A stretch of 38,819 nucleotides of DNA, from assembly GCA_051881655.1 (NCBI GenBank), contig JBJEQH010000154.1, forward strand, positions 1-38,819, written 5' to 3'. Shown piece after piece: positions 3,621 to 34,170 of this stretch (its first letter is position 1; each line of letters opens with the position of its first letter). This stretch comes from Candidatus Heritagella sp. (GTDB lineage Bacteria; Bacillota; Clostridia; Oscillospirales; Acutalibacteraceae). A program made the translations under genes and the position numbers. A model generated the notes under the pieces. The model saw only the letters and a program-made list of their open reading frames with translations, was not told the DNA's origin and did not search any database.

Positions 3621-3632
3621 TTTTTCCGCAAA

Positions 3633-3669
3633 ACGGCCCGTACAGAGAACCTGTACGGGCCGTTTTTTA
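3633..3669 (+). terminator. Rho-independent terminator
   Basis: acggcccgtacag (3633-3645) pairs perfectly with ctgtacgggccgt (3651-3663), followed by a T-tract. Confidence 0.85.
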
Positions 3670-3770
3670 TGGAGAAAGAGAAGAGAAACGCTCTTCCTGC
3701 CGTAAATCCGACGAAAAACAGGGCAAAGAGAGCGGAGGCGTGAGGATCTGTGAGCAACGGGTGATTCCCA

Positions 3771-3810
3771 GAAAGAAAATCGGCCCCGGTTTTAAAAAAC
3801 CGGGGCCGAT
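3771..3810 (-). terminator. Rho-independent terminator of prs
   Basis: atcggccccggtt / aaccggggccgat hairpin (3779-3810). On the minus strand it is followed by tttctttc. Confidence 0.8.
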
Positions 3811-3823
3811 TGGTACATTTTCT

Positions 3824-4969
3824 TTAGCCGTTCTTGCGCTTTTCCAGCAGCGCGGTGATTTTTTCATGGGGATCCAGCACGCTGGAGAAGGACATATCGT
3901 GGTTCATGGCGGCCACCAGATAGGCAGCATACTTCGATACATCCACTTCAAAGAACCACTCACGGCTCTTCAGTTCGTCCGTGCGGTAAGTCAGGTTGCT
4001 GCCCAGCACACCGTCGATAATGCCCTGCTCGTAGGCTTTGTCGTAGGAATCCAGACCGTTGGTGAAGATCGCGTAGGTCGCATAGCCGAAAATACGCTTG
4101 GCGCCTTTTTCCTTCAGCTTTACGGCGATATCCAACATGGACTCACCGGAGGAGATGATATCATCCGCGATGAAAACGTCCTTGCCCTCTACCGAAGAGC
4201 CCAGGTACTCGTGGGCGACAATGGGGTTGTGACCGTTGACAATGCGGGAATAATCGCGGCGCTTGTAGAACATACCCAGATCCACACTCAACACAGAGGC
4301 GTAGTACATATTCCGGTTCAGCGCGCCCTCGTCAGGGCTGACGATCATAAAGTGGTCGCGATCCAGGCTGAGATCCGGTACGTGCTTAAACATACACTTG
4401 AGAACCTGATAGGTGGGCATTACGTTGTCAAAGCCCATCAGCGGTACGGCATTCATCACCCGGGGGTCGTGGGCATCAAACGTAATGAGATTCTGTACAC
4501 CCATATCCTGCAGGGTTTGCAGCATAAAAGCACAGTCCAGCGATTCGCGGTAGCTGCGGCGGTGCTGACGGCCGCCGTACAGCATCGGCATAATCACATT
4601 CAGACGATGGGCCTTTCCGCCGGCTGCCTGAATCAGGCGGAGAAGATCCTGGAAGTGGTCATCGGGGGACATGGAGTTCGGTTGACCGAACAGGTTGTAT
4701 TTAATGCTGTAGTTTCCCACATCAATGACAAAGTACAGATCCATGCCGCGCACCGTAGTGCGAATCAGACCTTTGGCATCGCCGGAAGAAAAACGGGGGC
4801 ATTCGGCGTCGATCAGGAAGGTATCTTTTTCAATACCGGCTTCTCTGGCCCATTTGATCAGATAGCTGTCAATGCGCTGGGCCAGCTCCTTCGCGCCTTC
4901 AGTGGCAATAATCCCAATGGGGGCTGCGCCGCTCTGACGGAAAAAAAGCTGCGATTCTCTCGTTCCCAT
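3824..4969 (-). CDS. prs: Ribose-phosphate pyrophosphokinase, long (~380 aa) form
   Basis: PRTase/PRPP-binding loop VFIADDIISSGES, with RQHRR and FDAHD segments in the order seen in Prs-family proteins. Confidence 0.85.
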   Translation of the reverse strand: MGTRESQLFFRQSGAAPIGIIATEGAKELAQRIDSYLIKWAREAGIEKDTFLIDAECPRFSSGDAKGLIRTTVRGMDLYFVIDVGNYSIKYNLFGQPNSMSPDDHFQDLLRLIQAAGGKAHRLNVIMPMLYGGRQHRRSYRESLDCAFMLQTLQDMGVQNLITFDAHDPRVMNAVPLMGFDNVMPTYQVLKCMFKHVPDLSLDRDHFMIVSPDEGALNRNMYYASVLSVDLGMFYKRRDYSRIVNGHNPIVAHEYLGSSVEGKDVFIADDIISSGESMLDIAVKLKEKGAKRIFGYATYAIFTNGLDSYDKAYEQGIIDGVLGSNLTYRTDELKSREWFFEVDVSKYAAYLVAAMNHDMSFSSVLDPHEKITALLEKRKNG

Positions 4970-5040
4970 GTTTTTGTAACACCCTTCTTCTGTGAGATTC
5001 GCCCCGGTCGCCGGGGCATTTGTCCGTTCTTATCGAGGTT

Positions 5041-5049
5041 ATTATAACA
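5041..5049 (-). promoter_or_regulatory. Candidate extended -10 promoter of prs
   Basis: The minus strand reads TGtTATAAT. The -35 is weak. The leader contains the GC hairpin gccccgg-cga-ccggggc (5001-5017). Confidence 0.35.
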
Positions 5050-12722: not shown

Positions 12723-14108
12723 TCAAGCCAACTGCTGCAGCAGGGAAATCACAATGGGCATGGCGGCGGTGCGGCCATAGCCGCCCTCTTCCACCACCAC
12801 GGCAAAGGCATAGGGAGTGTCCGGGTTGCGGCAGTAGCCGAAGAACCAGGCGGTATCCTTCTTATCGTCTCCCACTTCGGCGGTACCGGTTTTGCCGCAG
12901 ACCTCCATCCCCGCCGGGAAATTGCTGTCACCGTAATCGACAATGACGTCATTTCGCATCAGCTCATCCAGAACGGCGGCGGTGCTGCTGTCCAGCAGGG
13001 TCAGATAGCTCGTCTCCGGGGTGGACACAATGCCGTTCCCATCGGTGATGGACGAGATGATGTGGGGGGTAACGGCCCGGCCGCCGTTGGCGATGGCGTT
13101 GGCGGCCAGCATCATGTGATAAGGGGTGACCTCGGTGGTGTACTGGCCGATGCCCGCCCAGCCGATTTCGTCCTCTGTGGCGCCGTCCAGGTTGATGCGG
13201 CTGGCCTTTACGGTGATGCCGTCCAGATCCCAGTTGCGGTCAAAGCCCATCTGCTTACACGTATCGGTCAGGGCCTCGGCCCCCAGATCCACCGCCAGAT
13301 CGGCGTACAGAATGTTGCACGATACAGCCAGCCCCTGCCGGATATCCAGTGTGCCGTGGGTTCCCATGCAGGTGATGGGATTGCCGTTGATGATCTCTTT
13401 GCCCTCGCAGGTATAGGTGCGCGTATCCCAGTCGGAAAAATGCTGGATGGCGCTGGCCGCGGTAAAGACCTTGAACGTGGAGCCCGGGGCATAGGTGACC
13501 GACAGCGTGCGGTCGTAATAGGCCCCTTTGTACTGATTGTTGGTCTCGATATCCGCAGGCAGGTTTTCGGGATCAAAGGTGGGGGTGCTGACCTTGCACA
13601 GGATATCACCGGTTTTGTAATTCATCAGGATCACGGCACCCTTGTAATTGCCCAGCCCCTGCAGCGCCGTCTGGCACAGCGAGGCATCCAGCGTCAGCTC
13701 AATGGTGCTGCCGGAGGAGCTGTTTTGAATCTGATTGACACCGGTAATGGGATTATAGCCCAGCAGCTGGGCCCGGTATTGCAGCTGTATGCCGGTGGAA
13801 ATACTGCCGTTTAGGTCCCCCACCGTGTGCAGGGTGGCCTTGCGGATGGACAGGTCATCGTTATACTGCCGCTCACCGTCCTTTGTTTCCACCAGAGTGA
13901 CGCCGCTGCGGTCGGTAATGGTGCCGGACCAGATGGCCTCGCCTCCGGCCTGCACCTCGGTGGTCTCGGTTTTCAGATGCCGGTTATAGGGCTGCATGGC
14001 CCACATGTCCCCCTCGGTCACCAGGCGGAACAGAAAAACGCCCATTCCAAAGAGGAACAGCCCGGTCAGCAGATAAAGGGTTAAGGAACGCCAACCCTGT
14101 GTTCTCAT
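12723..14108 (-). CDS. Class B penicillin-binding protein (PBP2/PbpA-like transpeptidase)
   Basis: N-terminal TM anchor, then the SxxK (GSTFK), SxN (VSCN) and KTGT (CGKTGTAEV) motifs in the correct order. Confidence 0.9.
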   Translation of the reverse strand: MRTQGWRSLTLYLLTGLFLFGMGVFLFRLVTEGDMWAMQPYNRHLKTETTEVQAGGEAIWSGTITDRSGVTLVETKDGERQYNDDLSIRKATLHTVGDLNGSISTGIQLQYRAQLLGYNPITGVNQIQNSSSGSTIELTLDASLCQTALQGLGNYKGAVILMNYKTGDILCKVSTPTFDPENLPADIETNNQYKGAYYDRTLSVTYAPGSTFKVFTAASAIQHFSDWDTRTYTCEGKEIINGNPITCMGTHGTLDIRQGLAVSCNILYADLAVDLGAEALTDTCKQMGFDRNWDLDGITVKASRINLDGATEDEIGWAGIGQYTTEVTPYHMMLAANAIANGGRAVTPHIISSITDGNGIVSTPETSYLTLLDSSTAAVLDELMRNDVIVDYGDSNFPAGMEVCGKTGTAEVGDDKKDTAWFFGYCRNPDTPYAFAVVVEEGGYGRTAAMPIVISLLQQLA

Positions 14109-15799
14109 GCGCTTCGCCTCCTTGCCGCATAGGTTCGTTCGTCGCTGGCCTTAATAAACGAGAGCAGTCCCCACACCGCCATCATGGAGGAGCCGCCTGC
14201 ACTGATAAAGGGCAGGGTCACGCCGGTCAGGGGCAGGATGTCCGTGGGGCCCAACACATTCAGGGCCGTCTGGAACAGCAGCAGGCCGGCGGCCGCGCAG
14301 GCGGTGATGGAGTAGAAGGTGGAGCGGCTGCGGGTGACATCGCTGCGGGCATAGAAGATGAACAGCACCATGGCCAGCAAAACCAGCAGGGCGAGCAGAA
14401 TCCCCTGTTCTTCGCACAGCATGCCGAATACCAGGTCGCTGTTGCCCTCCGGCATATGGACCAGGTACCCTTTGCCCAGACCCACACCGAAGAAACCGCC
14501 GCTGGCGATGTACGTCAGGGTGCGGCTCTGCTGATAGCCCAGCCCGTTTATATCGTCCCACACATGGCCCCAAACGGAGAAGCGGTCCGCCGCATAGGGC
14601 TTAAGCTGCAGGAACATGAACAGACCCAGCGCCACCAGTGCCGTGGCCAGAAACACGGTGCGCAGGCTGCCCGAGCGCATAAAGGCGATCAGCAGAAAAG
14701 TGATGAAGAAAATGGCGGCCGAGCCCATATCGTGCATCAGAACAAAGCAGGCCCCGCAGGCAATGCCGAACAGAATGAATTCGGTCAGGTTGCGGCGGGT
14801 CTGCAGGCGGTCCAGGGTGGCGGCTCCGCCGAAAATAAATGCGATCTTTACAAATTCACCGGGCTGAATGCTGACCGGCCCCAGATAAATCCAGTTTTTC
14901 GCCCCGTTAATCGAGGTGCCGATCACCAGTGTCAGCCCCAACAGCAGTACGCCGAAAATGGCGATGTACCGCCGCCACTGGTTCACCCGGTCCAGGTTCC
15001 CCATAAACCAGATCAAAAAGGTGAACAGAATCAGGCCGCCCACCATGGCGACCAGTTGGGTGACCACTACGCCCGTGCTCATGCTGGTCTGCAGGAAAAT
15101 CCCGATCCCCGATAAAAGCAGACCGACGGTCTCTACCTCGAAGGAGATGTGATCCAGCACATGGGTGCAGAACAGATAGAAGAAAATTTCGATCAGCGCC
15201 AGCATGCCCCACAGCAGAAAAACCTCCGGGCGCCAGGGGTCGCCGGAGCAGCAGACCTGCACAGCCAGCAGCAGATGGATCAGCACCGTCAGGGCCAGCA
15301 GGCCCGCCGGGGATGGAATGCGCCGGAACGGCACGGTGCTGGTGCGCGAATCGGCCCCCTCGGCGCGGATCAGCATCAGGGTGGTGCTGCCAAAAGTCAG
15401 GCGGTCGCCGGGCAGAATCGTGTGGGTGCCCTTAATTTTCACCCCGTTTACGCGGGTGCCGGATTTCGAGCCGGTATCCGTAATCTGCCAGCCGGATTCC
15501 CGGCGCATCAGTACGGCGTGGTCACGGCTCATGGTGCCGTCGGCAATGGTAATATCGCAGCTCTTGCTGCGGCCAATGGAATTTTCCCAGTACAGAACCG
15601 GAATTTTGCTGTTGGTCACTACATTCTGCAGCATGACCACCGGGGCAGCCTTCCGGCGGGAGCGGCGCACGGAAAAAAAGCACCGCAGAATCACCCACAA
15701 ACTGAGCAGCGGTACCAGAATGCGGAGAACCAGCAGGAGAATGTCCTGAGTGCCGGACAAAACCGTCAGGAACTGCTCCCATCCTTCAGAAAACGACAT
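14105..15799 (-). CDS. FHA-domain / SEDS (RodA/FtsW/SpoVE family) fusion protein
   Basis: One TM helix, then FHA hallmarks (IGRS...SRDHAVL...GTRVNG, about 15365-15640), then a roughly 400-aa polytopic SEDS body. AAGGAGGG RBS. An ATGA overlap joins it to the PBP gene. Confidence 0.88.
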   Translation of the reverse strand: MSFSEGWEQFLTVLSGTQDILLLVLRILVPLLSLWVILRCFFSVRRSRRKAAPVVMLQNVVTNSKIPVLYWENSIGRSKSCDITIADGTMSRDHAVLMRRESGWQITDTGSKSGTRVNGVKIKGTHTILPGDRLTFGSTTLMLIRAEGADSRTSTVPFRRIPSPAGLLALTVLIHLLLAVQVCCSGDPWRPEVFLLWGMLALIEIFFYLFCTHVLDHISFEVETVGLLLSGIGIFLQTSMSTGVVVTQLVAMVGGLILFTFLIWFMGNLDRVNQWRRYIAIFGVLLLGLTLVIGTSINGAKNWIYLGPVSIQPGEFVKIAFIFGGAATLDRLQTRRNLTEFILFGIACGACFVLMHDMGSAAIFFITFLLIAFMRSGSLRTVFLATALVALGLFMFLQLKPYAADRFSVWGHVWDDINGLGYQQSRTLTYIASGGFFGVGLGKGYLVHMPEGNSDLVFGMLCEEQGILLALLVLLAMVLFIFYARSDVTRSRSTFYSITACAAAGLLLFQTALNVLGPTDILPLTGVTLPFISAGGSSMMAVWGLLSFIKASDERTYAARRRSA

Positions 15800-15999: not shown

Positions 16000-17106
16000 T
16001 CAGTCCTCGGGAGTGGGTGTGGGCGTAGCCGTGGAAGAGAATTTTTCCACAAACATGGCCGGGTCATAGGCTCCGACCACTTCACTGTTCCACTCGATAT
16101 CGGTAAGGGAATCAGCCCCTTCTTTCAGCATGGCGTCAAATTCGTCGCCGCGCATCTCGCTGAGGATAGCGCTGCGGGTGCCGTCGCTCTCCAAATGCTG
16201 CTGGCATTCGTCAAAAATCGGATTTTTCTGCAAAATCACGTACAAATGCTGCTCGGGCAGCCCGAAGGTGACAACCTCCCCTTCCTTTATCTCCGCCAGT
16301 TTCCCGAGAAAATCCTCCGGATACAGCAGGCTCTCGCTGGTGGGGTCGATGGTGTCCTGTGTCAGAAGATCATAGGAAGCCTCGCTCTTCTCCTTATAGG
16401 CCTGCGCTGCCTTTTCCATGGTGCTGTTCCCCTCACGGATGGAGAGGGCATACCCGTCAAACGTATCGGTAACTTCCTTCTTCGCGTCCCCGTCCATTTC
16501 CACGGTTTCGCCGTCTTCGTTCTTCGTGGTCAGGGAAGCACAGAAATACTGAAAGGTCACATATTTGTTGTCGTAATACTCGTGGATTTCCTCGTCGGAG
16601 ACCTCTTTTTCTCCGCCTTTTCCATAGATATCCATGAAGACGGCGGCGTACATCACGGCGTACCGGGCATAGGCACGGGAGAAGGACTCCTGAGAAATCC
16701 CGTAGGAATCAAAGGTGCTGCCCAGGCTGGACCAGTAGTTGGAGGCCATGCTCTTGACGGTGCTCTCCTGTTCCGGCGAGAGAGTCAGATCCCGTTCCTC
16801 CATCAGTTGCTCCACATAGAACAGGCGACGAGTCAGGGACTTGGCTTCCTCCAAAATCCAGTCAGAGGCCTTCATGCCGTCGAACTCCGTGTCCATCAGC
16901 GGCACGGTTTTGTCGGTGCGGCTGTTTTCCGCCTCGTTAAAAGCGGCGAACAGCTCGTAAATATACACGCCCGTGGCCAGGGTGTCGTCCCCGCGCTTGG
17001 CGCTCCAGGTTTTTGATTCCGAGTAACAGCCGGTGCAAACTCCCAACAGGAGCATCGCGCTCAGCAGCGCGGCCAGCCCTTTTTTACCCCATTTTTTCAT
17101 GTTCAT
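16000..17106 (-). CDS. Putative lipoprotein, PrsA/SurA-like foldase candidate
   Basis: Signal peptide with Cys (AMLLLGVCTGC). The position directly downstream of mfd is where Firmicutes often carry a PrsA-type gene. There is a weak parvulin-like tail (IKEGEVVTFGLPEQHLYVILQKN). The functional call is tentative. Confidence 0.7.
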   Translation of the reverse strand: MNMKKWGKKGLAALLSAMLLLGVCTGCYSESKTWSAKRGDDTLATGVYIYELFAAFNEAENSRTDKTVPLMDTEFDGMKASDWILEEAKSLTRRLFYVEQLMEERDLTLSPEQESTVKSMASNYWSSLGSTFDSYGISQESFSRAYARYAVMYAAVFMDIYGKGGEKEVSDEEIHEYYDNKYVTFQYFCASLTTKNEDGETVEMDGDAKKEVTDTFDGYALSIREGNSTMEKAAQAYKEKSEASYDLLTQDTIDPTSESLLYPEDFLGKLAEIKEGEVVTFGLPEQHLYVILQKNPIFDECQQHLESDGTRSAILSEMRGDEFDAMLKEGADSLTDIEWNSEVVGAYDPAMFVEKFSSTATPTPTPED

Positions 17107-24664: not shown

Positions 24665-25324
24665 TCATTTTTCCGGAAGTGCGGCGATTTGGGGGAAAAT
24701 TTCAGCGGGTGAAGCCACACAGCCCACATGAGGATATGCATCGGCCTGCGACCGGCTGTGGAAGCCCAGGCCGTAGGTCACGGCCAGAAAGTCCATCCCG
24801 GCCAGGGCGGCTCCCTGCGCATCGAAAAGACTGTCCCCCACTAAAAGGCTGTCCTCCTTTTCGACCGACAGGATGCGGCATGCCTCTTCAAGGAGAGAGG
24901 CCTTCCGGCACTCCGGGGTTCCGTCGTATGCACAAAGGCCGTCAAAATACCGGAGAATATGCAGGTTTTCCAGCATCTTTCCGGCGAATCTCTCGTGCTT
25001 CAGGGTGGCCAGCGCGATCAGACAGCCGCAGGCCTTTAAATCCCGCAGGCACGCTTCGATCCCATCGTACAGCCTGGCCATAAAGATTCCCTTTTGGGCA
25101 TACAGCTCCCGGTAGAGCTGTGCGGCTTTTTCCGAATCCGCCGGGCTCATCCCGTATACCTTTTGAAAGCCCGCGTCCACCTGGCCGCCGATCACCCCCT
25201 CGTACCGCTCCTGTTCGGCGGGAAGAAGGCCCATGCGGCGGGCCGCTTCTCCGTAACACCAGAGAATGCCCCCGGAGGTATCGGCGAGGGTCCCATCCAG
25301 ATCAAAGATGACCAGCTTTTTCAT
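24665..25324 (-). CDS. HAD-IA family phosphatase (phosphoglycolate-phosphatase-like)
   Basis: Motif I VIFDLDGTLADT and motif IV VGDSLFDAQGA. ATGA start/stop overlap with the upstream gene. Confidence 0.85.
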   Translation of the reverse strand: MKKLVIFDLDGTLADTSGGILWCYGEAARRMGLLPAEQERYEGVIGGQVDAGFQKVYGMSPADSEKAAQLYRELYAQKGIFMARLYDGIEACLRDLKACGCLIALATLKHERFAGKMLENLHILRYFDGLCAYDGTPECRKASLLEEACRILSVEKEDSLLVGDSLFDAQGAALAGMDFLAVTYGLGFHSRSQADAYPHVGCVASPAEIFPQIAALPEK

Positions 25325-26880
25325 GAGACGGCCCGCTCCTTATTCCCGTTTTCCCGGAGGCAGTCGAGCAGGCGCTTTTCCGTGGCCTCCAGGATGCCCT
25401 CCAGCACCCGGATTTTCTCTCGCTCCGATGAGTCAATTCCGTGCAGATCCACGGTGATCCCGGTGTATTTCAGTTCTTTTTTCTCATTCATGGCGTTCAC
25501 CCTCTCCAGTACGGAATCCTCTTGACAGTATACATAAACAGTGTGGCGGCTGCCGTCTGTCCCATCGGCAAATACCGGCCGGACGTGACGGAAAATCGAT
25601 GGGTCCTTCCCGTCGTAGTAGAGATGCTGGCTGTCCTCCTGGAGGAACAGCACCACTTTGGGACGGCTGACGGAGCCGTGTTCCGCCCGGAAGGATTGGA
25701 AAAACTCGCGGCTTCCCTCCTGCCGGTCCGACAGCACAAGGATGTCCGCGGGGGAAGAGAGCGGTGTGAAAGTGTATGAGGCGCCGCACAGCTCGGCGAG
25801 CAGAAGCTCATTTGCATTGGTTGCGATGGAATCTCCCGCATTGGCCAGCAGGGCCAGCACCCGCGAGGCGGCATAATAGGAGAGCAGATACGGGTAATCC
25901 GTGAGGATCCGCTTATCAAAGCTGACGGCGGTTTTCACACACGGTCCCAAGGAGCGTACGGCCGTGGAATAGGCGGCAACGGCCTTGTCAAACACCGCGT
26001 CGGTGCAGTAGGGCAGCAGCTCGGACGGCATGGAGAACGGCAGCACATCGGCATCGGGGAACAGCGTATGATAGCAGCCCGCGATGTCATCGGGGTGCGG
26101 CTTAATCACCGGGTGCATGCCCGGCAGCAGCAGATCGGCGAACAGAGTGTAAAGGCGGTGCTGCTGCGGCAGCGTCATCAGGCCGAGGTTTGCCATGTGC
26201 TGGGTGAGAATCAGCCCGGACGAGGTACCAAGGGAGAGCTTTTGGCAGCCGAACAGGGCGAGAACCCGGCCCCGCTTGTCCTGCGGCAGCTGCTGCAGGA
26301 TTCTGTCCACGGAAAAGTCGGCCATTTTCGGGTTTTGGTACCCCGGGGCCTGTTTCTGGGTGTCTGCCAGCACCTTGGTACACAGGTCATTATCCCCAAA
26401 CAACCGCAGCTTATCAAACAGCTTGCGCTGGGTCCGGTTGCGGCTCATATTGGTCAGGGCGAATCCCCGGTCCGAGAGAACCCCACAGCCCTCTTCAAAA
26501 CAGACATAGGGCTTTTTGGAGGTGACAACATACCACCCCAGGGGGAAGTGATCCGGGCACAAAAACAGTTCGTCCTTTCCGGTCAGGGGAACGGGCAGAC
26601 GCTTTTTGATCATCCGGCAGCACAGTTTTCCGACCAGAGAGGAGGGAATTTTCCGCCGGTCCAGACTTCGGGCGAAGTCGGTCACCTCGGCCTCCGGCAG
26701 AAGAAAAACCTCATCGAAAATGCCGGCCTGGCGGTATCGTTCCAGATAGGCGGCCGAATTTCGGTGGATATCAGAGAGCAGCAGCACACATTTTTGGCCG
26801 GTGTCCTCGGTCAGGCGGTGCAGCGCACAGCACAGAATGTGATAGGTGGTCACCGCATAATAAATTCGCATAGAGAGCAT
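25321..26880 (-). CDS. GT-B sialyltransferase-like glycosyltransferase, paralogue A (polysialyltransferase/GT52-like motifs)
   Basis: E-E-G motif (CFEEGCG, 26488-26496) and HP motif (VIKPHPDD, HP at 26092-26097) in the order and spacing of the bacterial sialyltransferase D/E-D/E-G and HP motifs. AAAGGAGGA RBS. It is a paralogue of 31293-32846. Confidence 0.7.
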   Translation of the reverse strand: MLSMRIYYAVTTYHILCCALHRLTEDTGQKCVLLLSDIHRNSAAYLERYRQAGIFDEVFLLPEAEVTDFARSLDRRKIPSSLVGKLCCRMIKKRLPVPLTGKDELFLCPDHFPLGWYVVTSKKPYVCFEEGCGVLSDRGFALTNMSRNRTQRKLFDKLRLFGDNDLCTKVLADTQKQAPGYQNPKMADFSVDRILQQLPQDKRGRVLALFGCQKLSLGTSSGLILTQHMANLGLMTLPQQHRLYTLFADLLLPGMHPVIKPHPDDIAGCYHTLFPDADVLPFSMPSELLPYCTDAVFDKAVAAYSTAVRSLGPCVKTAVSFDKRILTDYPYLLSYYAASRVLALLANAGDSIATNANELLLAELCGASYTFTPLSSPADILVLSDRQEGSREFFQSFRAEHGSVSRPKVVLFLQEDSQHLYYDGKDPSIFRHVRPVFADGTDGSRHTVYVYCQEDSVLERVNAMNEKKELKYTGITVDLHGIDSSEREKIRVLEGILEATEKRLLDCLRENGNKERAVS

Positions 26881-26899
26881 CCTCCTTTCTGACAGTTTT

Positions 26900-29014
26900 T
26901 CACCGCTGGTATTCCCGCTCGATCAGGGCCCGCAGGGGCTCGGTGCGGTGCCCGCTGGTTCCTACGGCGCGGTTGACCGGGTAATCGCCGAACAGATTTT
27001 TAAAGTAATCCACCTGGGAAATGACAAACCGGCAGACTTCATAGGCATCGGCGCCGCAGATGTTCAGCATAGCGGGGAAGGAGGAGAATGCCTCGGTGTA
27101 GTCAGCGGCAAAATCCCGGATGCCGCTTTGGATTTCTTTCATATAGTCAAATCCCTCGGTTTCCGGCAAATCGAACCGGTATCGGATGTGGTGCTCCTCG
27201 TCATAGGCAAAGCCCAGGAAGGACGGCGTGGGGGAAGCGAGCATCATCTCGATAAAGACACTGTACAGCCGCTGAACATCGTGGCTCTCCTTTATGTCGC
27301 GGTTTTTTCGCTGGGAGAAGGCATAGGCATCCATCCGCCCATTGAGCAGGGGCGTTTCGATGATGGTCTGATCGTGCAGGTAATTGGCGCCGATTACCGC
27401 GCCGTACACCTGACAGTCCATGTTCCACTCCTGTTCAACCAGATAACGGATGGCGGAAAAGCCGCTGGCGGCCCAACCCACATCCACACACAGAACCTTG
27501 TGGGCGCTTCCGATTTTTTTGGTGAAGTATTCCCGGGCAGCGCCCTCGCTCTGGGCCCGCTTTTCTTCAATCAGCTCCCAGTTGTGCAGCAGCACGTCCA
27601 CAATGGCATCGTAATTCTCCTGAGAGAGAATCGTGTCCGGTTCAATCCCGGCGCGGTGCAGCCGTTCCGTCATTTCGGGCAGATCCATGGCGGCACACAT
27701 TTCTTTTACCGGGATTTTCCGGGAGATTTTGTATTTGACATACCGCAGGATGTATTCATGGCGGAAGGCACCGGCGGTCAGCAGGGTGGCCGCAGCGCGG
27801 GACCAGTAGAAATACTCGGTGTTCTCCCCGGGGTATAGGCGGTCGTATACCTGCTTGAGAATATCCCCGTCCCGCGACAGAAAGAAGACCTTGCCAATGG
27901 ATTCACTTTCTGCTTTCCGGTGGAGGAACTGGCAGTAACCCAGCACCAAAAGACCCGCATAGGCATAGCCGAATTCATAATACGCACTGGCGCGGCAGGT
28001 GCCGCTGCACAGCTTGTTATTGACAATGCCGCGGTAAGCGGAGCCCACCAGGTCGGTCATATCCCAGGGCCGGTGGCCGTTTCCATAGGAGGAAACACTG
28101 CGCATGAAAACTGTTCCGATCCCGTTTTCCCCGGCGCGCCGGATGTCGGCTGTGTAGTTATCCCCGAAATGAAGAATCCTCTTTCCCGAATAGGCATCCC
28201 GGACAATCTGATACAGGCCGCCCTGCCGCTTGGAGACGCCATAGGCATTGGAGACAAAAAGAGCATCGGGATGATACCCGCATTTCTCCAGCATACGGCG
28301 GATGCACGAAGCGGGAAGATACATATCCGTCACGGCGATGACGGTTTTGCCCATATTGACCGCCATGTCATACACCTGCTTGAGATAGGGGTGGGGCATG
28401 CACAATTCCAGCTCGATTTCCATTTCGACCGAAGCGCCGAAAGCGGGATCCACGATAACATACCGGTTCAGCCGCTGATAGATTTCGATCAGTGTCACTT
28501 CGCCCGAGCCGGTCTGCTGTCGCTTTGCCTCCCGGGCTTCCGTTTCGGCCAGCACCCGGTAACGGAAAAAGCTGGGGCACCGCAGCTTCTCCCCCACCAG
28601 ATAAAACAGAGTTTTGGGGTCATCAAACGGGCGCAGCAGCAGAGTATCAAACACGTCGAACGAGATAACGTCATTCATCAGGATTTTTTTGGCGAGAAAG
28701 GGGTAGCTGGGCCGCCGGATGTGCCGGGTCTCCGGCTGATCGGTATAGGGCGCCAGCGAATACTTTCGCAATGCGGCCGCACTGACACGGTGGTGCCGCA
28801 GCCCGTCGCCGGCCAGAGCGGACAAATTGAGGAAAAACAGATACAGGGCCTTTCGGGGGCGGCTGATGCCGGGCTTTCGCTCCCGGTAAAAAGAGCGAAG
28901 AATCCATCGGTTCCACAGGGTGGCCATCCGCAGGAGCTTTCTCCGGATGCGGAAAAGGGTCCTTTTCAGAGAGGCGATTGTTTTTTTATAAAAAGCATAC
29001 ATGGGAATGCGCAT
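26900..29014 (-). CDS. Large HAD-superfamily protein, COG5610-like
   Basis: ISFDVFDTLLLRPF (motif I, dehalogenase-like spacing) and HFGDNYTADI (motif IV), then a domain of about 430 aa (FFLSRDGD..., VDVGWAASG...). The start is ambiguous: ATG 29014 or 29002. The ORF is open to 29473, but that part overlaps the upstream gene. Confidence 0.7.
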   Translation of the reverse strand: MRIPMYAFYKKTIASLKRTLFRIRRKLLRMATLWNRWILRSFYRERKPGISRPRKALYLFFLNLSALAGDGLRHHRVSAAALRKYSLAPYTDQPETRHIRRPSYPFLAKKILMNDVISFDVFDTLLLRPFDDPKTLFYLVGEKLRCPSFFRYRVLAETEAREAKRQQTGSGEVTLIEIYQRLNRYVIVDPAFGASVEMEIELELCMPHPYLKQVYDMAVNMGKTVIAVTDMYLPASCIRRMLEKCGYHPDALFVSNAYGVSKRQGGLYQIVRDAYSGKRILHFGDNYTADIRRAGENGIGTVFMRSVSSYGNGHRPWDMTDLVGSAYRGIVNNKLCSGTCRASAYYEFGYAYAGLLVLGYCQFLHRKAESESIGKVFFLSRDGDILKQVYDRLYPGENTEYFYWSRAAATLLTAGAFRHEYILRYVKYKISRKIPVKEMCAAMDLPEMTERLHRAGIEPDTILSQENYDAIVDVLLHNWELIEEKRAQSEGAAREYFTKKIGSAHKVLCVDVGWAASGFSAIRYLVEQEWNMDCQVYGAVIGANYLHDQTIIETPLLNGRMDAYAFSQRKNRDIKESHDVQRLYSVFIEMMLASPTPSFLGFAYDEEHHIRYRFDLPETEGFDYMKEIQSGIRDFAADYTEAFSSFPAMLNICGADAYEVCRFVISQVDYFKNLFGDYPVNRAVGTSGHRTEPLRALIEREYQR

Positions 29015-29067
29015 ACCTCCGTGATCCGGGCGGACCGGAATCCGCCGGAAAAAGTGAATGGCTGTGT

Positions 29068-30660
29068 TCAGGCGCTTTGGTGCGCCAGCATGGATGTGTA
29101 TTTCGAATCGGTGACAAAACTCAGCTCCAGTTCGGACGAACGCTTGCGAAGCTGAACGGCGATTTCCGCGTTTTTCTGCTGGGCCGTATACCGGTCCATG
29201 TACGAATCGAACCGGCTGTCCAGATAATTCTGCGCGCGCGGCTCGAAACCGTCGAAGCCCGCCAGGGCCGCGCTGGAGGCCCCGCACTGCACCAGCAGCT
29301 TCAGGAGCATCATTCCCGCGCTGTCGGGGGAGTAAGCGGAGGTGTTGGTCAGGGAGGAGTAGTTGACAATCAGGGCATCCGGATTGCGGCCGGCGAGGTT
29401 GGAAGTCAGCAGCAGCGGTGTTTCCCCGGCGGCACCCAGCTGTTCGTATCTTCGGGCATTGGTGACAAAGCACAGATCTGCCGGGAACAGCGGGTGGAGG
29501 AAGTTCACGCTGATGACAAAGGGCCGGTACTGCAAAATGTAATCACGGATCCGATCGGCCTGCAGCCGGCCGTTCTTTCCCGGTGCGAGAACCAGAATCC
29601 GGCGGCCGCTCAGCATGGTGCGCAGCGTCGCGATCGCCCGGCTGTCATCAATGCAGTTTTTCTGATAGGAGAGGTACAGCTGTTTGATCAGATCCACATC
29701 GAAGCGCTTGCGCTTGTCCGCCGGGATCTGATCGAGAATTTCCTTGATGGACTGGGCGCTGAGCGTCTGTTTGGCGATCAGGTACGCCGAATAGTTGGGG
29801 TGGCAGAAATTCACGGCGGACAGGTAGTACGCCAGCGAGTACCCCCAGGGGTTCGAGACATAAATGCCGGACAGATACTTGTCCGACAATTCGATCACGG
29901 GCAGTACGTCATAGCAGGTGCCGTTATTTTTGTTCAGATAATCCATGATCAATTCGGAGCAGAGGTTTCCCGCGCCCCGGCCGATCCCGTTGGCACTGCA
30001 GTCGATCAGCAGGGGGCGGTCGGTTTTGTAATGGATCATCTGCTGCGCGTTGGAAAAGGCCAGCTGCAAATTGTTGTGGGAGTGAAAGCCCAGACAAATG
30101 CCGGGGCGGAGATTATAGTCCGCCAGGAACAGCTGGCGCTGCAGATCGCGGGCATACATGCACCCCAGGGTATCCACAATATAAAAGGCATAGGGCTGAA
30201 TCTCATTGACCCGGAGGATCAGGGAGAGCAGCCGATCATCCGAGTAAAACGAGCTGCCCACCGGCTGCATAAACAGCTTATAGCCCTTTTCCTGGATGAT
30301 CCGGCCGTAGGTTAACGCTTTGTCGATTTCATCGGAGTGGAAAGTCAGGCGGATTCCTTCAATGCCGCCCGGATGGGCCGGCGGCAAAAGACGGGGATCG
30401 GTCTCCTTTTCCCCGATGGCGATCATGGCCACATACATATTTTTTCCATTGCCCGGCAGGGGACCGATGTCGTCGGGGGAGTGAAACAGGGAACAGTCCC
30501 TGTCCGCCGGTGTGTCGGTGAGAAATCCGCATTCGATGATGTCCATTCCGGACTGGGACAGGTTCTCGAGGATATCCCGGATCACCGCTTCGCCAAAACG
30601 CCAGTCGTTGATATAGCCGCCGTCCCGAAGGGTGCAGTCAAGCAGTCGAATCTGGCTCAT
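29068..30660 (-). CDS. DRE-TIM (HMGL/4-hydroxy-2-oxovalerate-aldolase-like) aldolase fused to a CstII/Maf (GT42/DUF115)-like domain
   Basis: N-terminal LLDCTLRDGGY, GFHSHNNLQLAFSNA (HxH) and DCSANGIGRGAGN motifs. The C-terminal ~180 aa (about 29071-29604) carry ILVLAPGKNG...VISVNF...SAGMMLLKLLVQCGASSAALAGFDGF. The start ATG lies 1 nt after the upstream stop (TGAtATG). Confidence 0.8.
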   Translation of the reverse strand: MSQIRLLDCTLRDGGYINDWRFGEAVIRDILENLSQSGMDIIECGFLTDTPADRDCSLFHSPDDIGPLPGNGKNMYVAMIAIGEKETDPRLLPPAHPGGIEGIRLTFHSDEIDKALTYGRIIQEKGYKLFMQPVGSSFYSDDRLLSLILRVNEIQPYAFYIVDTLGCMYARDLQRQLFLADYNLRPGICLGFHSHNNLQLAFSNAQQMIHYKTDRPLLIDCSANGIGRGAGNLCSELIMDYLNKNNGTCYDVLPVIELSDKYLSGIYVSNPWGYSLAYYLSAVNFCHPNYSAYLIAKQTLSAQSIKEILDQIPADKRKRFDVDLIKQLYLSYQKNCIDDSRAIATLRTMLSGRRILVLAPGKNGRLQADRIRDYILQYRPFVISVNFLHPLFPADLCFVTNARRYEQLGAAGETPLLLTSNLAGRNPDALIVNYSSLTNTSAYSPDSAGMMLLKLLVQCGASSAALAGFDGFEPRAQNYLDSRFDSYMDRYTAQQKNAEIAVQLRKRSSELELSFVTDSKYTSMLAHQSA

Positions 30661-30661
30661 A

Positions 30662-31336
30662 TCAGCATTGCCCTTCTTTCCGGGGGCGGATGTAGGTATC
30701 CAGGACCATTTGTGCCACATCGAAGTCAAACGGCTCATTGATATCACATGCCTCGATAAAATCCACCGGGAGCAGGCAGGGGGTTTCACCGATCCGCCTT
30801 CCCTTTTCCACGATCAGTTCCCGTTTAAAGGCATACATTCCCGTGGTTTCGGCGAACAGATTGCCGATGTCCTGGGTTCTGGGAATATGGGTGCTGTCAT
30901 AAAGGGGCTGGCCGTTCAGCCATACAAATTCATTCAGCCGTTTGACCGTGGTGGCACTGTCATAGCCGCCCGAAATAATGGCGTCCAGCCCGGCCTGCAG
31001 GGTTTTGGCAGAGAGAAACGGCGCCGTGGCATGAGTCATCAGATAGTTTTCGGCAGGTACTGCCTCGCAGAAGGAACGCATCACTTCCAAAATGGGGGTG
31101 GTCTGCCGATCCAGACGGGTGTCGCGCTTTAAGAATTTGATCCCCTCGGGAAGATAGGGCAGAACCTCCTCACTGCTGCAGTAGACAAAAGCGGCATCCA
31201 GCCCCTGAACATGGGTGAGGGAATCCAGAATATAGCACAGAAGCGGTTTTCCTCCCGCAAAGGGCCGGGTGTTTTTCCCCGGCAGGCGCTGGTTATTCAG
31301 CTTGATGGGAACGAAGGCGACGGATTTGTATTTCAT
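30662..31336 (-). CDS. Acylneuraminate/CMP-ulosonate-type cytidylyltransferase (NeuA/KdsB/SpsF family)
   Basis: N-terminal VAFVPIKLNNQRLPGKN nucleotide-binding loop, about 224 aa in a single domain. AAAGGAG RBS 8 nt before the ATG. Confidence 0.8.
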   Translation of the reverse strand: MKYKSVAFVPIKLNNQRLPGKNTRPFAGGKPLLCYILDSLTHVQGLDAAFVYCSSEEVLPYLPEGIKFLKRDTRLDRQTTPILEVMRSFCEAVPAENYLMTHATAPFLSAKTLQAGLDAIISGGYDSATTVKRLNEFVWLNGQPLYDSTHIPRTQDIGNLFAETTGMYAFKRELIVEKGRRIGETPCLLPVDFIEACDINEPFDFDVAQMVLDTYIRPRKEGQC

Positions 31337-32846
31337 TGAGGTAGCTCCTTTTCATTTTATTGTACCGGCTGCACAGCAGGCGGGCTTCTCTCTCGGTTCT
31401 GCGGTGGGCAGAAATCTCACAGATGGCGTGGGTATAGGACAGGGGACAGCGGATTCGCAGGCCGCCGAGTTTTTCAAGCAGGGAGGCGTCACGGCTCGAA
31501 ACGGAAATCCGGTGGAAATAGGGCCGGGCGATGGATCCCTCTTCGGGGGTGACCCGCACCGTTACCTCCATCATGCCGGACAGCTTCTCTTCGGTGACGC
31601 CGTTGGTGTAGGGGGCGGTTCCCAGAAACACACACAGCCCGTAGGGGCCGGTCTGGTTTTCATCGCTTTCGCACACGCCGCTGTCCACCAGCACCTTCAG
31701 GCGGGGGCCGTCTTTCCCGGATTTGTACATGGACTGAAAGCACTCGGCAGCCGTCCGGCTGACCCCGCGGTAGGTCTGTTCCCCGCTGCTGTTCAAAAAC
31801 TGCAGAATACGGGCCAGCGCGTAGAAAAGGTGCAGGCTCTCCGGATCCTTTTCCACCGCGGTTCCCAGGCTGCAGGTACGCCCGACAAAAGGGGCCAGCC
31901 CGCCCACCGCGGTGGAACTGATGGTAATGGCCAGCTGAGGCGGGGAATCAAAGACAAATGGAAGCAGCTCGGCGTTGACCTCGCGGGGCAGTATTTCGCT
32001 TTTTGGGAAAACACGCCGGTAATCCAGCCATTTGTCCTTGGGATGTGGCTTTACAAGAAGGCGGAAATCCGGAGCAAAATAGTCGGCCAGCAGGGTGGAG
32101 AGGTACTCCTGGGTTTCCAGGTCGTTTTCGGCCAGCGTCTCCAGATATTGCGTCAGAAACAGACAGGTTTTTTGGTTTGGGTCCAGTTTGATCGGCGTGA
32201 TTCCGTAAAAATCCAGCAGGGCGGCCCGGTCCTTTTCCGGCATGGAGCGCACGGCCTCGTACACGGAAAAATTCACGGCCCGGTCATCATGAAAACCGGG
32301 CAGTTGATTTTTCAGGTCACACAAACAGGCGGTCACCAGCGGGCTTCGTCCCGCCCCGTGAAGGTGGTTGCAGATGATAAAATTGGACAGGTTGAACTTT
32401 TTGGTAATCGCCAGATAGCGCTCCGGCTGTGAGAGCATGCCGCTGCCGTCCTCGATATACACATAGGGAATGCGGTTGTGCAGCAGATAGACGCCCAGCG
32501 ACCACTGATCCGATGCCACATACAGGGTTTCCATCTGCCGCAGATCCAGATCCAGCCATTTTTCAAAGGTGTGGCTGATCGCCTCTGCCATGGCGTCAAT
32601 CTCCTCGGGTCGGCTGGTTTCATCCAGCGCGCCGCCCCGTTTCAGCTTGAAAGAGATCTCAGGAATCACCCTGACAAAGGAAAACCAGCCGTTTTCTTCC
32701 AGCCGGTTCAGCAGATCCCGGTTTTTCATTTCCGGCAGCAGGTATTCCGACAGGAACAGGCAGCACGGCCGGTCCCGATGGACCGTCATGCGGTGGCAGA
32801 TAACATACAATAGCTGATACAGGGTCGTTACATGGTACAGAATCAT
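31293..32846 (-). CDS. GT-B sialyltransferase-like glycosyltransferase, paralogue B
   Basis: E-D-G motif (YIEDGSG, 32445-32453) and HP motif (LVKPHPKD, HP at 32040-32045). The N-terminus LYHVTTLYQLLYVICHR parallels IYYAVTTYHILCCALHR of paralogue A. Confidence 0.7.
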   Translation of the reverse strand: MILYHVTTLYQLLYVICHRMTVHRDRPCCLFLSEYLLPEMKNRDLLNRLEENGWFSFVRVIPEISFKLKRGGALDETSRPEEIDAMAEAISHTFEKWLDLDLRQMETLYVASDQWSLGVYLLHNRIPYVYIEDGSGMLSQPERYLAITKKFNLSNFIICNHLHGAGRSPLVTACLCDLKNQLPGFHDDRAVNFSVYEAVRSMPEKDRAALLDFYGITPIKLDPNQKTCLFLTQYLETLAENDLETQEYLSTLLADYFAPDFRLLVKPHPKDKWLDYRRVFPKSEILPREVNAELLPFVFDSPPQLAITISSTAVGGLAPFVGRTCSLGTAVEKDPESLHLFYALARILQFLNSSGEQTYRGVSRTAAECFQSMYKSGKDGPRLKVLVDSGVCESDENQTGPYGLCVFLGTAPYTNGVTEEKLSGMMEVTVRVTPEEGSIARPYFHRISVSSRDASLLEKLGGLRIRCPLSYTHAICEISAHRRTEREARLLCSRYNKMKRSYLNEIQIRRLRSHQAE

Positions 32847-32850
32847 GGTG

Positions 32851-34170
32851 TTACTCCCCCTCCATCATGTGCGAAATCGAATCAGCGGCGGATTGGTACA
32901 GCCGGACGGCACAGGCCGACAGCTCGTCGCTGCGGATACCGGTACAGCGGGAAGAGCGGTGGAACGCACGGCCGTAATCGAGAACTCCCTGCCGGGCAAG
33001 GGCGCCCGCCCGGGAGAACTCTCCGTCGGTGAGGAGAACATAGGCGTCTTTCTGGCCGTTCAGCGCCCCGGAAAAATACGATTCCACGGTGTTCTCGCCT
33101 TCCGCGCTGCCCATAATGGGAACACCGAATACTTCTTCCATATAGCGCGGGAAGAAATCATCCGGGAGCCCCCCGACAGAAAGGGGCCCATCGGGATGGG
33201 CCTGATACAGACGGTACGCGGCCGCGTACACAATGGGGCCAATGTACAGAAAGGACAGCTCATAGGCGCGGTGGGGTTCGTACCGGTTGAGCAGTGCGGT
33301 CAAAAGTGTGTGCCAGTAAACCTCGGTGAATGCGCAGGGCGGCAGGGGGAAGCGGATTCTCTTTCTTAAAAAGGCCCGGTGGGGGATATAGTATGGCTTG
33401 GCCCCGCGGCGCATGGCCGGTTTTAGGAATCCGCGGAAATCACAGCTCAGCGCGGCGATGTCTCCCTCGGGCAGAGCCTTTTGCAATAGCTTCCCCTTTG
33501 AAAGCCCCAGATCGGAGGAACAGAGAAGGGTATCTGCCGGGATTCCGTTGGCGGATAAGAGAGCGGCGGTCTGCCGGCTGCCCAAACTGGTTACCGCCAC
33601 CGCGCACAGGGGAAGCCCGCAGGTGTGCAGAATCTCCGCGGCCCGTTTCAGATAGGGATTGGGCGTATAGAGTTTAAAAATCCATGCCTCTTCCCGGTGA
33701 AAATCGGCCTGACAGCCCAGCTTTTCGTTGATCTTTTCATAGATGGCTGCAAGGGGAAGGGTCGGGTCATCCAGCTTCTTTCGGGTTTTGGAAAAATTCC
33801 GAATGCCGTTCTCCCTCTCCAAAAGAGCAAAAAGGTCCGTTTCCTCGAGGGGGCACACCAAAAGGCTGCCGAATACATCCAGGCAGGCTCCGTGCAGGCC
33901 GGCCGCCGGAGAGATGAAATCCTGCACCCGGCGGCGCCGGTATTTTTCCGGGATGCCGTCGGACGCATCGGCTTTCCGATTGCGGAGAAATGGAAGGCGG
34001 TACAGCAGGTTTATTTTCAGCAGGGCCATGCCAAAAGCAATGGGAGAACCGGTGGCCTTCTCCGGATTTTCGGCGCGCAGCCGGGTGGTGGACAGACAGA
34101 TGTCCTCGTTGCCGTTGGTCAGAAAACCATAGAGTTGATTGAGCAGGGACGGTGACAGTTTTTCAAGCAT
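32851..34170 (-). CDS. Divergent COG5610/HAD-like protein, probably catalytically degenerate
   Basis: Alignable by eye to 26900-29014 (LDVFGSLLVCP vs FDVFDTLLLRP; PNPYLKRA vs PHPYLKQV; LGLSKGKLLQ vs YGVSKRQGGLYQ). The GDxxxD motif IV is absent. The start is taken at ATG 34170. The ORF is open to 34650 across the AT-rich intergenic region and the trkA start. Confidence 0.6.
   Translation of the reverse strand: MLEKLSPSLLNQLYGFLTNGNEDICLSTTRLRAENPEKATGSPIAFGMALLKINLLYRLPFLRNRKADASDGIPEKYRRRRVQDFISPAAGLHGACLDVFGSLLVCPLEETDLFALLERENGIRNFSKTRKKLDDPTLPLAAIYEKINEKLGCQADFHREEAWIFKLYTPNPYLKRAAEILHTCGLPLCAVAVTSLGSRQTAALLSANGIPADTLLCSSDLGLSKGKLLQKALPEGDIAALSCDFRGFLKPAMRRGAKPYYIPHRAFLRKRIRFPLPPCAFTEVYWHTLLTALLNRYEPHRAYELSFLYIGPIVYAAAYRLYQAHPDGPLSVGGLPDDFFPRYMEEVFGVPIMGSAEGENTVESYFSGALNGQKDAYVLLTDGEFSRAGALARQGVLDYGRAFHRSSRCTGIRSDELSACAVRLYQSAADSISHMMEGE

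Follow-up and report, generated by a model that had tools for sequence, protein, structure and literature searches.

A gene for a two-domain protein lies on the minus strand of a 38,819-nucleotide stretch of Candidatus Heritagella sp. (GenBank assembly GCA_051881655.1, contig JBJEQH010000154.1), which in its full length is hereafter called the window. The gene (29068–30660, stop codon at 29068–29070) encodes a protein in which a DRE-TIM barrel resembling 4-hydroxy-2-oxovalerate aldolase (HOA) is joined to an MptE-like domain. Translation of the minus-strand open reading frame (ORF) from the ATG at 30660 gave 530 amino acids. The longest possible ORF begins at a GTG at 30789; since the orthologues begin at the same Met as that of MSQIRLLDCTLRDGG, the ATG at 30660 was taken as the start rather than the GTG. 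The N-terminal part contains the motifs CTLRDGG (residues 9–15), FHSHNN (192–197) and GIGRGAGN (225–232), and the C-terminal part contains ILVLAPGKNG (355–364), VISVNF (382–387) and SAGMMLLKLLVQCGASSAALAGFDGF (447–472). Upstream on the same strand, a cytidylyltransferase gene (30662–31336) ends with TGA, followed by the single base T and then by the ATG of the aldolase gene. This spacing of one nucleotide had been pointed out in a preliminary description of the stretch, which also read the protein as a fusion of an HOA-like aldolase, from a subgroup of unassigned function, with a CstII/Maf-like domain as a putative transfer or nucleotide-binding module, and suggested that the aldolase takes the place of a NeuB-type synthase.

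Residues 1–265 (29866–30660) form a DRE-TIM metallolyase barrel. The N-terminal half matched PF00682 (HMGL-like) with an E-value of 1.1e-16 and 61.4 bits against a cut-off of 29, and its best NCBIfam models were those of 4-hydroxy-2-oxovalerate aldolase (4.9e-20 and 1.5e-16), with scores far under the equivalog or subfamily cut-offs (TIGR03217 and NF006049, 60.5 vs 286 bits and 71.8 vs 229 bits). In a sequence search of the PDB, the top match was 3dxi, a "putative aldolase" (3.7e-27, residues 4–306), followed by the HOA aldolases 4lrs (1e-10), 8ih7, 1nvm (1.6e-6) and 4jn6 with alignments of approximately 240–270 residues. The isopropylmalate synthases (IPMS) gave local matches in the same search (about 1e-5), and the NCBIfam models of isopropylmalate, citramalate and homocitrate synthases gave short local matches (~1e-7). 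Because the alignments to HOA aldolases were longer and their E-values far better than those to IPMS-type enzymes, the barrel was placed with the HOA-like enzymes, as the preliminary description had done on the basis of the three N-terminal motifs. It is predicted to be HOA-like rather than of the acetyl-CoA-dependent synthase type, and not to be an HOA aldolase proper. The nearest solved relative, 3dxi, belongs to what we take to be the CDD family "DRE_TIM_HOA_like", which agrees with the earlier placement in a subgroup of unassigned function.

The residues expected to carry the chemistry of the barrel were highly conserved. The signature CTLRDGG (30616–30636) holds R12 and D13, which were present in 72/72 orthologues whose N-terminus was called, and the HxH metal ligands H193 and H195 (30076–30084) were invariant in 82 orthologues, as were D163, N197 and N232. 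At the position of the catalytic His of HOA aldolases (RDGxH), which we take to be H21 in DmpG and H20 in BphI, 71/72 orthologues have a Tyr (Tyr16, RDGGY), where the aligned 4lrs has His. A distant relative of 672 aa (P0241) has RDGGH with the HOA-type His; its Arg/His-rich C-terminal extension resembles a frameshifted read-through. The barrel is followed by a helical segment (residues 266–335, 29656–29865) that could be aligned to 3dxi and 4lrs, lies at the position of the HOA "communication" region and contains the invariant residues W272, Y274, H287 and Y290 in its WGY and CHPNY motifs. With the class II pyruvate aldolases DmpG, BphI and HsaF, the window protein shares the barrel, the RD...HxH metal/pyruvate signature and ~270 alignable residues. 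It differs from them in its low score (72 vs 229 bits), the Tyr in place of the catalytic His, its extra C-terminal domain and its origin from glycan-biosynthesis rather than aromatic-catabolism loci. It also lacks their acetaldehyde dehydrogenase partner: no acylating acetaldehyde dehydrogenase (DmpF/BphJ) turned up in the operon of the window or in the set of genes that recur nearby in 82 related loci.

The Tyr substitution and the weak local matches to isopropylmalate, citramalate and homocitrate synthases could also be read as signs of a different reaction, i.e., of a Claisen-type synthase condensing acetyl-CoA with a 2-oxo acid, or of a lyase or epimerase with a 2-keto-3-deoxy acid as substrate, e.g., 2-keto-3-deoxygluconate (KDG) or its 6-phosphate (KDPG), and with a different and possibly branched or six-carbon product. 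Genes for KDG-kinase-like proteins, which adjoin the cassette in several loci, would fit this too. However, the full-length matches with much better E-values are those to HOA aldolases, no conserved CoA-related genes were found near the cassette among the related loci, and the phosphatases of the KdsC and Kdn-9-phosphate type and the sialyltransferase-like glycosyltransferases (GTs) encoded in these loci point to a cyclisable ulosonic acid. These other reactions are therefore considered improbable for the barrel.

The fusion of the barrel to a second domain, which had been singled out in the preliminary description, is real, and the two domains are those described there; such a fusion is not unusual. 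A protein search gave >7800 matches, of which the best 120 were all 523–544 aa long with a query coverage of 98–100% and had no more specific annotation than "aldolase catalytic domain-containing protein". A species-genome scan confirmed relatives in at least 592 genomes, and the best 80 of these relatives were mostly full length. Their hosts include Clostridia, Bacilli (Gottfriedia, Paenibacillus), Bacteroidales, Treponema, Gastranaerophilales and Acholeplasmataceae, as well as Alpha-, Gamma- and Epsilonproteobacteria and one metagenome-assembled genome (MAG) of the Thermoplasmata. When a profile of the C-terminal domain was compared with 1.84 billion representatives, 368 clusters (at 50% identity) passed E≤1e-30, a number that rose to 859 with a threshold of E≤1e-10. 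Within the best 150 clusters, the domain was located at about residues 325–530 of proteins of ~497–545 aa or longer, or reached the end of shorter ones, and it was seen only joined to the aldolase. Stand-alone versions of the domain were considered for four short matches (P0159, P0161, P0170 and P0171) and rejected, as these corresponded to internal parts of the full-length sequence; the short matches were for this reason taken to be 5'-truncated gene calls. The fusion is the standard architecture of a widespread family and no rarity, and the window gene is an ordinary member of it, with nothing special about this single instance.

The same architecture is present in the Bacteroides protein from which 3dxi was derived. 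The 3dxi entry comprises 320 aa and is 99% identical to a parent protein of 510 aa (P0307), the C-terminal part of which aligned to the C-terminal domains of the present family (alignment A2, described below) with an E-value of 7e-5. As 3dxi is the truncated N-terminal part of this protein and its crystal lacks the C-terminal domain, the sole structure of the family hid the second domain. The gene of the parent protein likewise adjoins a PF02348 cytidylyltransferase gene inside capsule loci. The parent protein falls into another subfamily: barrel identity is ~33%, CHPNY is not conserved, and the gene order (aldolase, cytidylyltransferase, PfkB kinase) differs from that of the window type (cytidylyltransferase, aldolase, HAD phosphatase).

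The C-terminal part (residues 336–530, 29071–29655) is a lid-less, Rossmann-like nucleotide-binding domain of the MptE/DUF115 type, as assigned from profiles and from an AlphaFold2 (AF2) model. A PDB search with the C-terminal half of the single protein gave only a faint match to SteA. Alignments were made of 38 full-length relatives (A1) and of 20 C-terminal domains cut out (A2). Eight of the 20 domains matched PF01973 (MptE-like; best 3.5e-7), and a precomputed PF01973 match was present in one of the best 120 full-length relatives among the >7800. In the PDB, the A2 profile matched SteA with an E-value of 0.0025 and archaeal MptE HPPK only weakly, with the APGxS loop aligned in these matches and, for MptE, also the AGFDGF/GGMDF motif; in the window gene, the corresponding APGK loop and AGFDGF are encoded at 29575–29586 and 29245–29262, respectively. 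The AF2 model had seven strands, a predicted local distance difference test score (pLDDT) of 90 and a predicted template modelling score (pTM) of 0.88. Its best Foldseek matches in the PDB were SteA (7e-5), the HPPK/MptE of M. jannaschii (3.6e-4) and ST3Gal-I (1.1e-3), with template modelling (TM) scores of about 0.4–0.5; neither CstII nor Maf was among the top 50 fold neighbours.

A link to the CstII/Maf side of this fold group was provided by stand-alone PF01973 proteins encoded in related loci (alignment A3), which matched CstII (6e-7), another lipooligosaccharide sialyltransferase, Maf and MptE. Comparison of A2 with A3 by hhalign gave a probability of 93% and an E-value of 2.9e-7 over 127 columns. 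The C-terminal domain belongs to the MptE/DUF115/GT42 fold group as a separate, lid-less branch; the similarity is at family level, is well beyond chance, and does not favour CstII/Maf over MptE/SteA. The two similarities on which the preliminary description rested, namely that of the C-terminal half to the GT42/PF01973 fold and that of the N-terminal half to HOA aldolases, were thus both found.

Conservation within the fused domain was on par with that of the metal ligands of the barrel. G361, S420, N421, Y434, D446 and G471 were conserved in 100% of the 82 orthologues, and N386, R404 and D470 in ~98%. In the AF2 model, these pocket residues were located at the C-terminal ends of the strands. 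MptE, SteA, CstII and Maf share with the fused domain a Rossmann-like fold in which strand 1 leads into a glycine-rich loop and strand 2 is followed by an Asn, and they also have its G-x-D motif. The fused domain is set apart from them by the TM scores of ~0.4–0.5, by the missing lid and by an invariant set of its own (R404, TSN at T419-S420-N421, Y434 and SD), and it has no equivalents of CstII His188 or Maf E324.

The last of these differences bears directly on the proposal of the preliminary description that the C-terminal domain transfers the sugar, so that one polypeptide would both make and transfer it. Homology to the GT42-like proteins of related loci agrees with such an active CstII/Maf-like transferase, as does the retention, as D470, of the G-x-D Asp that Maf requires (D415 of 5mu5, where E324 is essential as well). 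In CstII, the catalytic base is, we presume, His188, which follows the G-x-D motif, and no invariant or near-invariant His was found in residues 336–530 of the orthologue alignment. The Maf E324 position, an invariant D91 in the stand-alone DUF115 proteins (A3), aligned to position 401 of the fused domain, which varies (N/S/G), in a stretch where the alignment is approximate. The absence of the lid region and of CstII and Maf from the best fold matches also argues against this role. Some cassettes have no transferase nearby, e.g., the one in locus L030, where the cassette stands alone; however, separate dedicated transferases were encoded in 66/81 loci. A transferase role is therefore unlikely, and it was ranked lowest among the roles considered for the domain, given that an invariant His is lacking, the Maf acid position is variable and most loci encode separate transferases.

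In order to describe the gene context, ORFs were called in the 82 related loci and iterative hidden Markov models (HMMs) were built from the window proteins. A PF02348 cytidylyltransferase gene was located directly upstream on the same strand in 70/81 loci, most often with an overlap of 4 or 8 nt, and was present anywhere in the locus in 75/82. A PGP-like HAD phosphatase was encoded in 35/82 loci, in 27 of them directly downstream, and a neighbour of the KdsC/Kdn-9-phosphate-phosphatase family was present in four other loci (TIGR01670, 136 bits vs a cut-off of 107; NF058599, 144 bits). In addition, the representative search gave a triple fusion of aldolase, MptE-like and HAD parts (P0193, 751 aa), of which the HAD part was 40% identical to the window HAD protein. 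Exactly one type of ulosonate-transferase-like GT was encoded in 66/81 loci: a family related to GT38 and GT52 (named Y here) in 42 loci, stand-alone DUF115/GT42 proteins (CstII-like) in 20, and TIGR04396/BFO_1060-type proteins in four. Linkage of the fused gene to a homologue of CMP-sugar synthetases is a direct observation; so are its links to phosphatases, through adjacency in part of the loci and fusion in one protein, and to ulosonate-transferase-like GTs, through co-occurrence. The other genes in the loci are those of ordinary polysaccharide assembly, encoding GT2, GT4, Wzx, Wzy, an ABC-2 exporter, LytR-CpsA-Psr proteins, aminotransferases, epimerases and a pyruvyl transferase. In some loci, the operon is reduced to four genes, for a protein of a second recurrent family (X, described below), a Y protein, the cytidylyltransferase and the aldolase. 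The Pfam families of NeuB, KdsA and NanA were absent from the seven loci with precomputed Pfam annotation. A Thermoplasmata archaeon MAG (L040) carries the order aldolase, HAD, cytidylyltransferase on a 6.8-kb contig, for which lateral transfer or bin contamination is possible.

From this context we propose, with a probability of roughly 0.55, that the gene encodes the committed "synthase" of a cassette making a CMP-activated (CMP, cytidine monophosphate) acid of the 3-deoxy-2-ulosonic type for a cell-surface polymer, the cassette being the cytidylyltransferase, then the aldolase/MptE-like protein and usually a phosphatase. The barrel would bind pyruvate on a divalent metal held by D13, H193 and H195, with R12, and convert it to the enolate, which would be added to an aldose, free or phosphorylated, supplied by central metabolism. 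The HAD phosphatase (KdsC-type in other loci) would take off the terminal phosphate, and the PF02348 enzyme would make the CMP glycoside, thereby drawing the reversible aldol reaction towards its product. Ulosonic acids form the sugar class that has to date been observed solely in CMP-activated form (bioRxiv 10.64898/2026.04.20.719630), and such a product fits the PF02348 partner. The earlier suggestion that the aldolase stands in for a NeuB-type synthase fits the conserved gene context, and within it we infer that pyruvate is the donor and that a sugar aldehyde is the acceptor. A catabolic role of the HOA or KDG type was considered and rejected in view of the glycan-assembly loci that surround the gene and of its coupling to the cytidylyltransferase.

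The cassette parallels the KdsA/KdsC/KdsB, NeuB(NANS)/NANP/NeuA(CMAS) and Kdn-9-phosphate pathways, in which a synthase, a HAD/KdsC phosphatase, a PF02348 CMP-synthetase and sialyltransferase-type GTs likewise occur. It differs from them in that the synthase is non-homologous to the phosphoenolpyruvate (PEP)-dependent KdsA and NeuB and would use pyruvate, so that the step would be reversible; in the extra nucleotide-binding domain; and in the kinase that occurs in some loci where others have a phosphatase. In its widest form, which we hold tentatively and with somewhat less than even confidence, the proposal is that of a widespread CMP-ulosonate route without NeuB or KdsA. Its synthase would be a class II (DRE-TIM) pyruvate aldolase to which a novel branch of the MptE/GT42 nucleotide-binding fold is permanently joined. 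The product would be a sugar acid so far undescribed in these organisms, perhaps a 3-deoxy-2-ulosonate of six to nine carbons, for the wall or capsule polymers of gut Clostridia, Bacteroidales and others, with the fused domain acting as a nucleotide-sugar sensor or sugar kinase of a new kind.

For the fused domain, a sensing (feedback) role towards a nucleotide or CMP-sugar is the tentatively preferred reading, with a phosphotransfer role about equally likely or just behind. Isopropylmalate synthase (LeuA), citramalate synthase (CimA) and homocitrate synthases consist of a DRE-TIM barrel, a helical linker and a C-terminal allosteric ligand-binding domain, and act at a committed step. The layout of the present protein would be analogous to theirs; the fold of its C-terminal domain is unrelated, and a regulatory role would be an extrapolation. 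SteA is a phosphonucleotide-binding domain, probably non-enzymatic, and resembles the ATP site of thiamine pyrophosphokinase and the CMP site of CstII (PMC12977500). The LeuA-type allosteric domains and SteA are the precedents for the sensor reading of a domain that has kept an invariant nucleotide pocket without the catalytic residues of its transferase relatives.

Alternatively, the fused domain could be an ATP-dependent kinase or pyrophosphokinase like MptE or thiamine pyrophosphokinase that phosphorylates the aldose acceptor or the product, in which case the cassette would follow the logic of animal sialic acid synthesis (kinase, synthase, HAD phosphatase, CMP-synthetase). MptE HPPK was among the best fold and profile matches, the pocket contains the invariant Asp446, Asp470, Arg404, Ser420 and Asn421, their strict invariance suggests catalysis, and the adjacent phosphatase and the triple fusion imply a phosphorylated intermediate. 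However, the TM score to MptE was just ~0.5, and the HAHGDN-type stretch of MptE is not conserved, with TSN found instead. An extra PfkB kinase is encoded in some loci where the fused domain is intact, about half of the loci show no phosphatase, and no kinase would be needed if the acceptor were already a central sugar phosphate. The kinase role is considered possible but rather unlikely, clearly ahead of the transferase role.

Several observations weigh against the synthase proposal, including the sensor function preferred for its second domain. The replacement of the HOA catalytic His by Tyr16 means that the chemistry may differ from that of BphI and DmpG. The C-terminal half of the window protein itself did not match PF01973 even at E≤10, and gave only noise in Pfam (LpxD, Git3). 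The 98–100% invariance of many polar pocket residues would be more typical of a catalytic than of an allosteric site. No phosphatase, kinase or X-type HAD domain was encoded nearby in 26 loci, and 12 more had only the HAD domain of X. In four loci from Clostridia (L029, L036, L056 and L078), a PfkB kinase resembling KDG and 2-keto-3-deoxygalactonate (KDGal) kinases was located directly downstream of the aldolase; it scored about 230 bits with NF041332 and 540–550 bits with a KDPG-aldolase/kinase fusion model, in the kinase half of the latter. The 510-aa subfamily of Bacteroides and Prevotella (L085/L086) showed its order of aldolase, cytidylyltransferase and PfkB inside Wzy-type capsule loci. 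A PfkB kinase in place of a phosphatase is left unexplained by a simple scheme of synthase, phosphatase and synthetase; the acid may be a 2-keto-3-deoxy acid of six carbons, or the sugar may vary from clade to clade. A TagD-type (PF01467) cytidylyltransferase gene was located upstream of the aldolase gene in two loci, one gene away in L071 (8483–8926, plus strand) and directly in L073, and the HMM scan detected no PF02348-type gene in either locus. Finally, no paper linking the aldolase family to CMP-sugars was found in the literature, and the aldolase is not mentioned in the SugarBase preprint (bioRxiv 10.64898/2026.04.20.719630) or in the E. coli capsule typing paper (PMC13171606).

Read at the level of the family, the cassette would be a variant of the known CMP-ulosonate systems in which the synthase is a class II aldolase with an obligatory nucleotide-fold domain. 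Ulosonic acids such as sialic acids, Kdo, pseudaminic and legionaminic acid are key surface determinants in host–microbe interaction, and NeuB- and KdsA-type synthases serve as the markers by which they are sought in genomes. If the proposal is true, surveys with these markers miss many producers, given the at least 592 carrier species genomes, many of them of gut and rumen Clostridia and Bacteroidales, and the wall polymer and capsule chemistry of the carriers is under-described. It would also provide a PEP-independent two- or three-enzyme route to CMP-sugars, possibly useful in chemoenzymatic synthesis, and would provide a function for the "HOA-like" DRE-TIM subgroup, for which so far there is only a structure (3dxi). 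The proposal can be tested directly, since the cassette is compact and is carried by cultured bacteria, among them Anaeromicropila herbilytica (loci L001/L007), Clostridium leptum DSM 753 (L075) and Gottfriedia acidiceleris DSM 18954 (L058).

In the window, the gene is part of a minus-strand operon (24665–34170) with the order X2, Y1, cytidylyltransferase, aldolase/MptE, X1, Y2, HAD. The cytidylyltransferase (224 aa, 30662–31336) belongs to the CMP-ulosonate-synthetase family: it matched PF02348 with 2.5e-11, over the gathering score, and PseF weakly, and its only PDB sequence matches were NeuA enzymes (9t4z, 2.5e-8; 1qwj, 5e-4). The last gene of the operon (24665–25324, minus strand) encodes a HAD-IA phosphatase of 219 aa (PF13419, 7.5e-26). 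A scan of the operon for promoters and terminators was uninformative, with promoter-like sites at the expected number and weak terminator-like sites.

Y1 (517 aa, 31293–32846, minus strand) is a GT-B glycosyltransferase with matches to PF07922 (GT52, 4e-6) and PF07388 (polyST, 5e-4). It contains the motifs YIEDGSG (D/E-D/E-G) and KPHPKD (HP), which are invariant in the Y family, and a short member of the family matched PF07388 over its full length and over the gathering score. HP and D/E-D/E-G motifs characterise the sialyltransferases of families GT38, GT52 and GT80 (PMC4202792). The AF2 model of Y1 (pLDDT 90) had a GT-B fold, with best matches that included GT80 and GT52 sialyltransferases, UDP-GlcNAc 2-epimerases and UDP-glycosyltransferases (UGTs); the profile of the Y family gave no match among PDB sequences. 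Y2 (519 aa, 25321–26880, minus strand) is a paralogue of Y1 with 29% identity over 357 aa and has kept the motifs as EEGCG and KPHPDD. Both proteins are annotated as hypothetical in the database, and Pfam barely finds one and misses the other.

X1 (26900–28678, minus strand; 592 aa counted from MNDVISFDVFDTLL) is a homologue of ribofuranosyltransferases of the phosphoribosyl pyrophosphate (PRPP)-dependent type. The profile of the X family (A4) matched residues 366–845 of Bcs3 with 3.8e-38 and 7shg, a "ribofuranosyl transferase", with 3e-33 in the PDB, despite which X1 and X2 had no Pfam match. X2 (~439 aa, 32851–34170, minus strand, start uncertain) is a divergent paralogue of X1 and shorter than it, and its HAD motif I has degenerated (DVFGS instead of DVFDT). 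Bcs3 is the capsule polymerase of Haemophilus influenzae type b, and its module combines a PRPP-dependent glycan phosphoribosyltransferase with a HAD phosphoribosyl-phosphatase (PMC10299916); the same phosphoribosyltransferase-phosphatase module is attributed to Kelly et al. (2022) as far as that work is reported in PMC13171606. The HAD-like domain of X was also considered as a phosphatase for the ulosonate phosphate and was rejected for this role, as X is a clear homologue of the ribose-5-phosphate-removing module of Bcs3 and 7shg; a double role is possible.

Polymers of ribofuranose and Kdo (Rib-Kdo; E. coli K13 and relatives) need a pairing of ribofuranosyltransferase and ulosonate transferase (PMC13171606; PMC10299916). 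The window locus resembles these capsule systems in the homology of X1 to the phosphoribosyltransferase-phosphatase module and in its pairing with ulosonate-type transferases. Unlike them, it lies in what the closest homologues indicate to be a Clostridia genome of the Gram-positive type, and its transferases are GT38/52-like and not Kdo transferases. By this analogy, the window locus most likely builds a polymer of ribofuranose and a ulosonate-type sugar, in which the GT-B proteins Y1 and Y2 and the ribofuranosyltransferase homologues X1 and X2 would assemble a product analogous to the E. coli Rib-Kdo capsules.

Elsewhere in the window, two proteins of 513 aa (3506–5047, plus strand) and 368 aa (16000–17106, minus strand) had no Pfam match at E≤1e-5. 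The remaining genes are housekeeping genes, e.g., for pyruvate formate-lyase, GalT, a GH38 alpha-mannosidase, Mfd and Pth; pyruvate phosphate dikinase and TrkA/TrkH were read from the translations alone, without a profile scan. A minus-strand gene at 14105–15799 encodes an FtsW/RodA-family protein with an N-terminal FHA domain, an unusual combination for a SEDS protein, and is adjoined by a gene for a penicillin-binding transpeptidase (12723–14108, minus strand).

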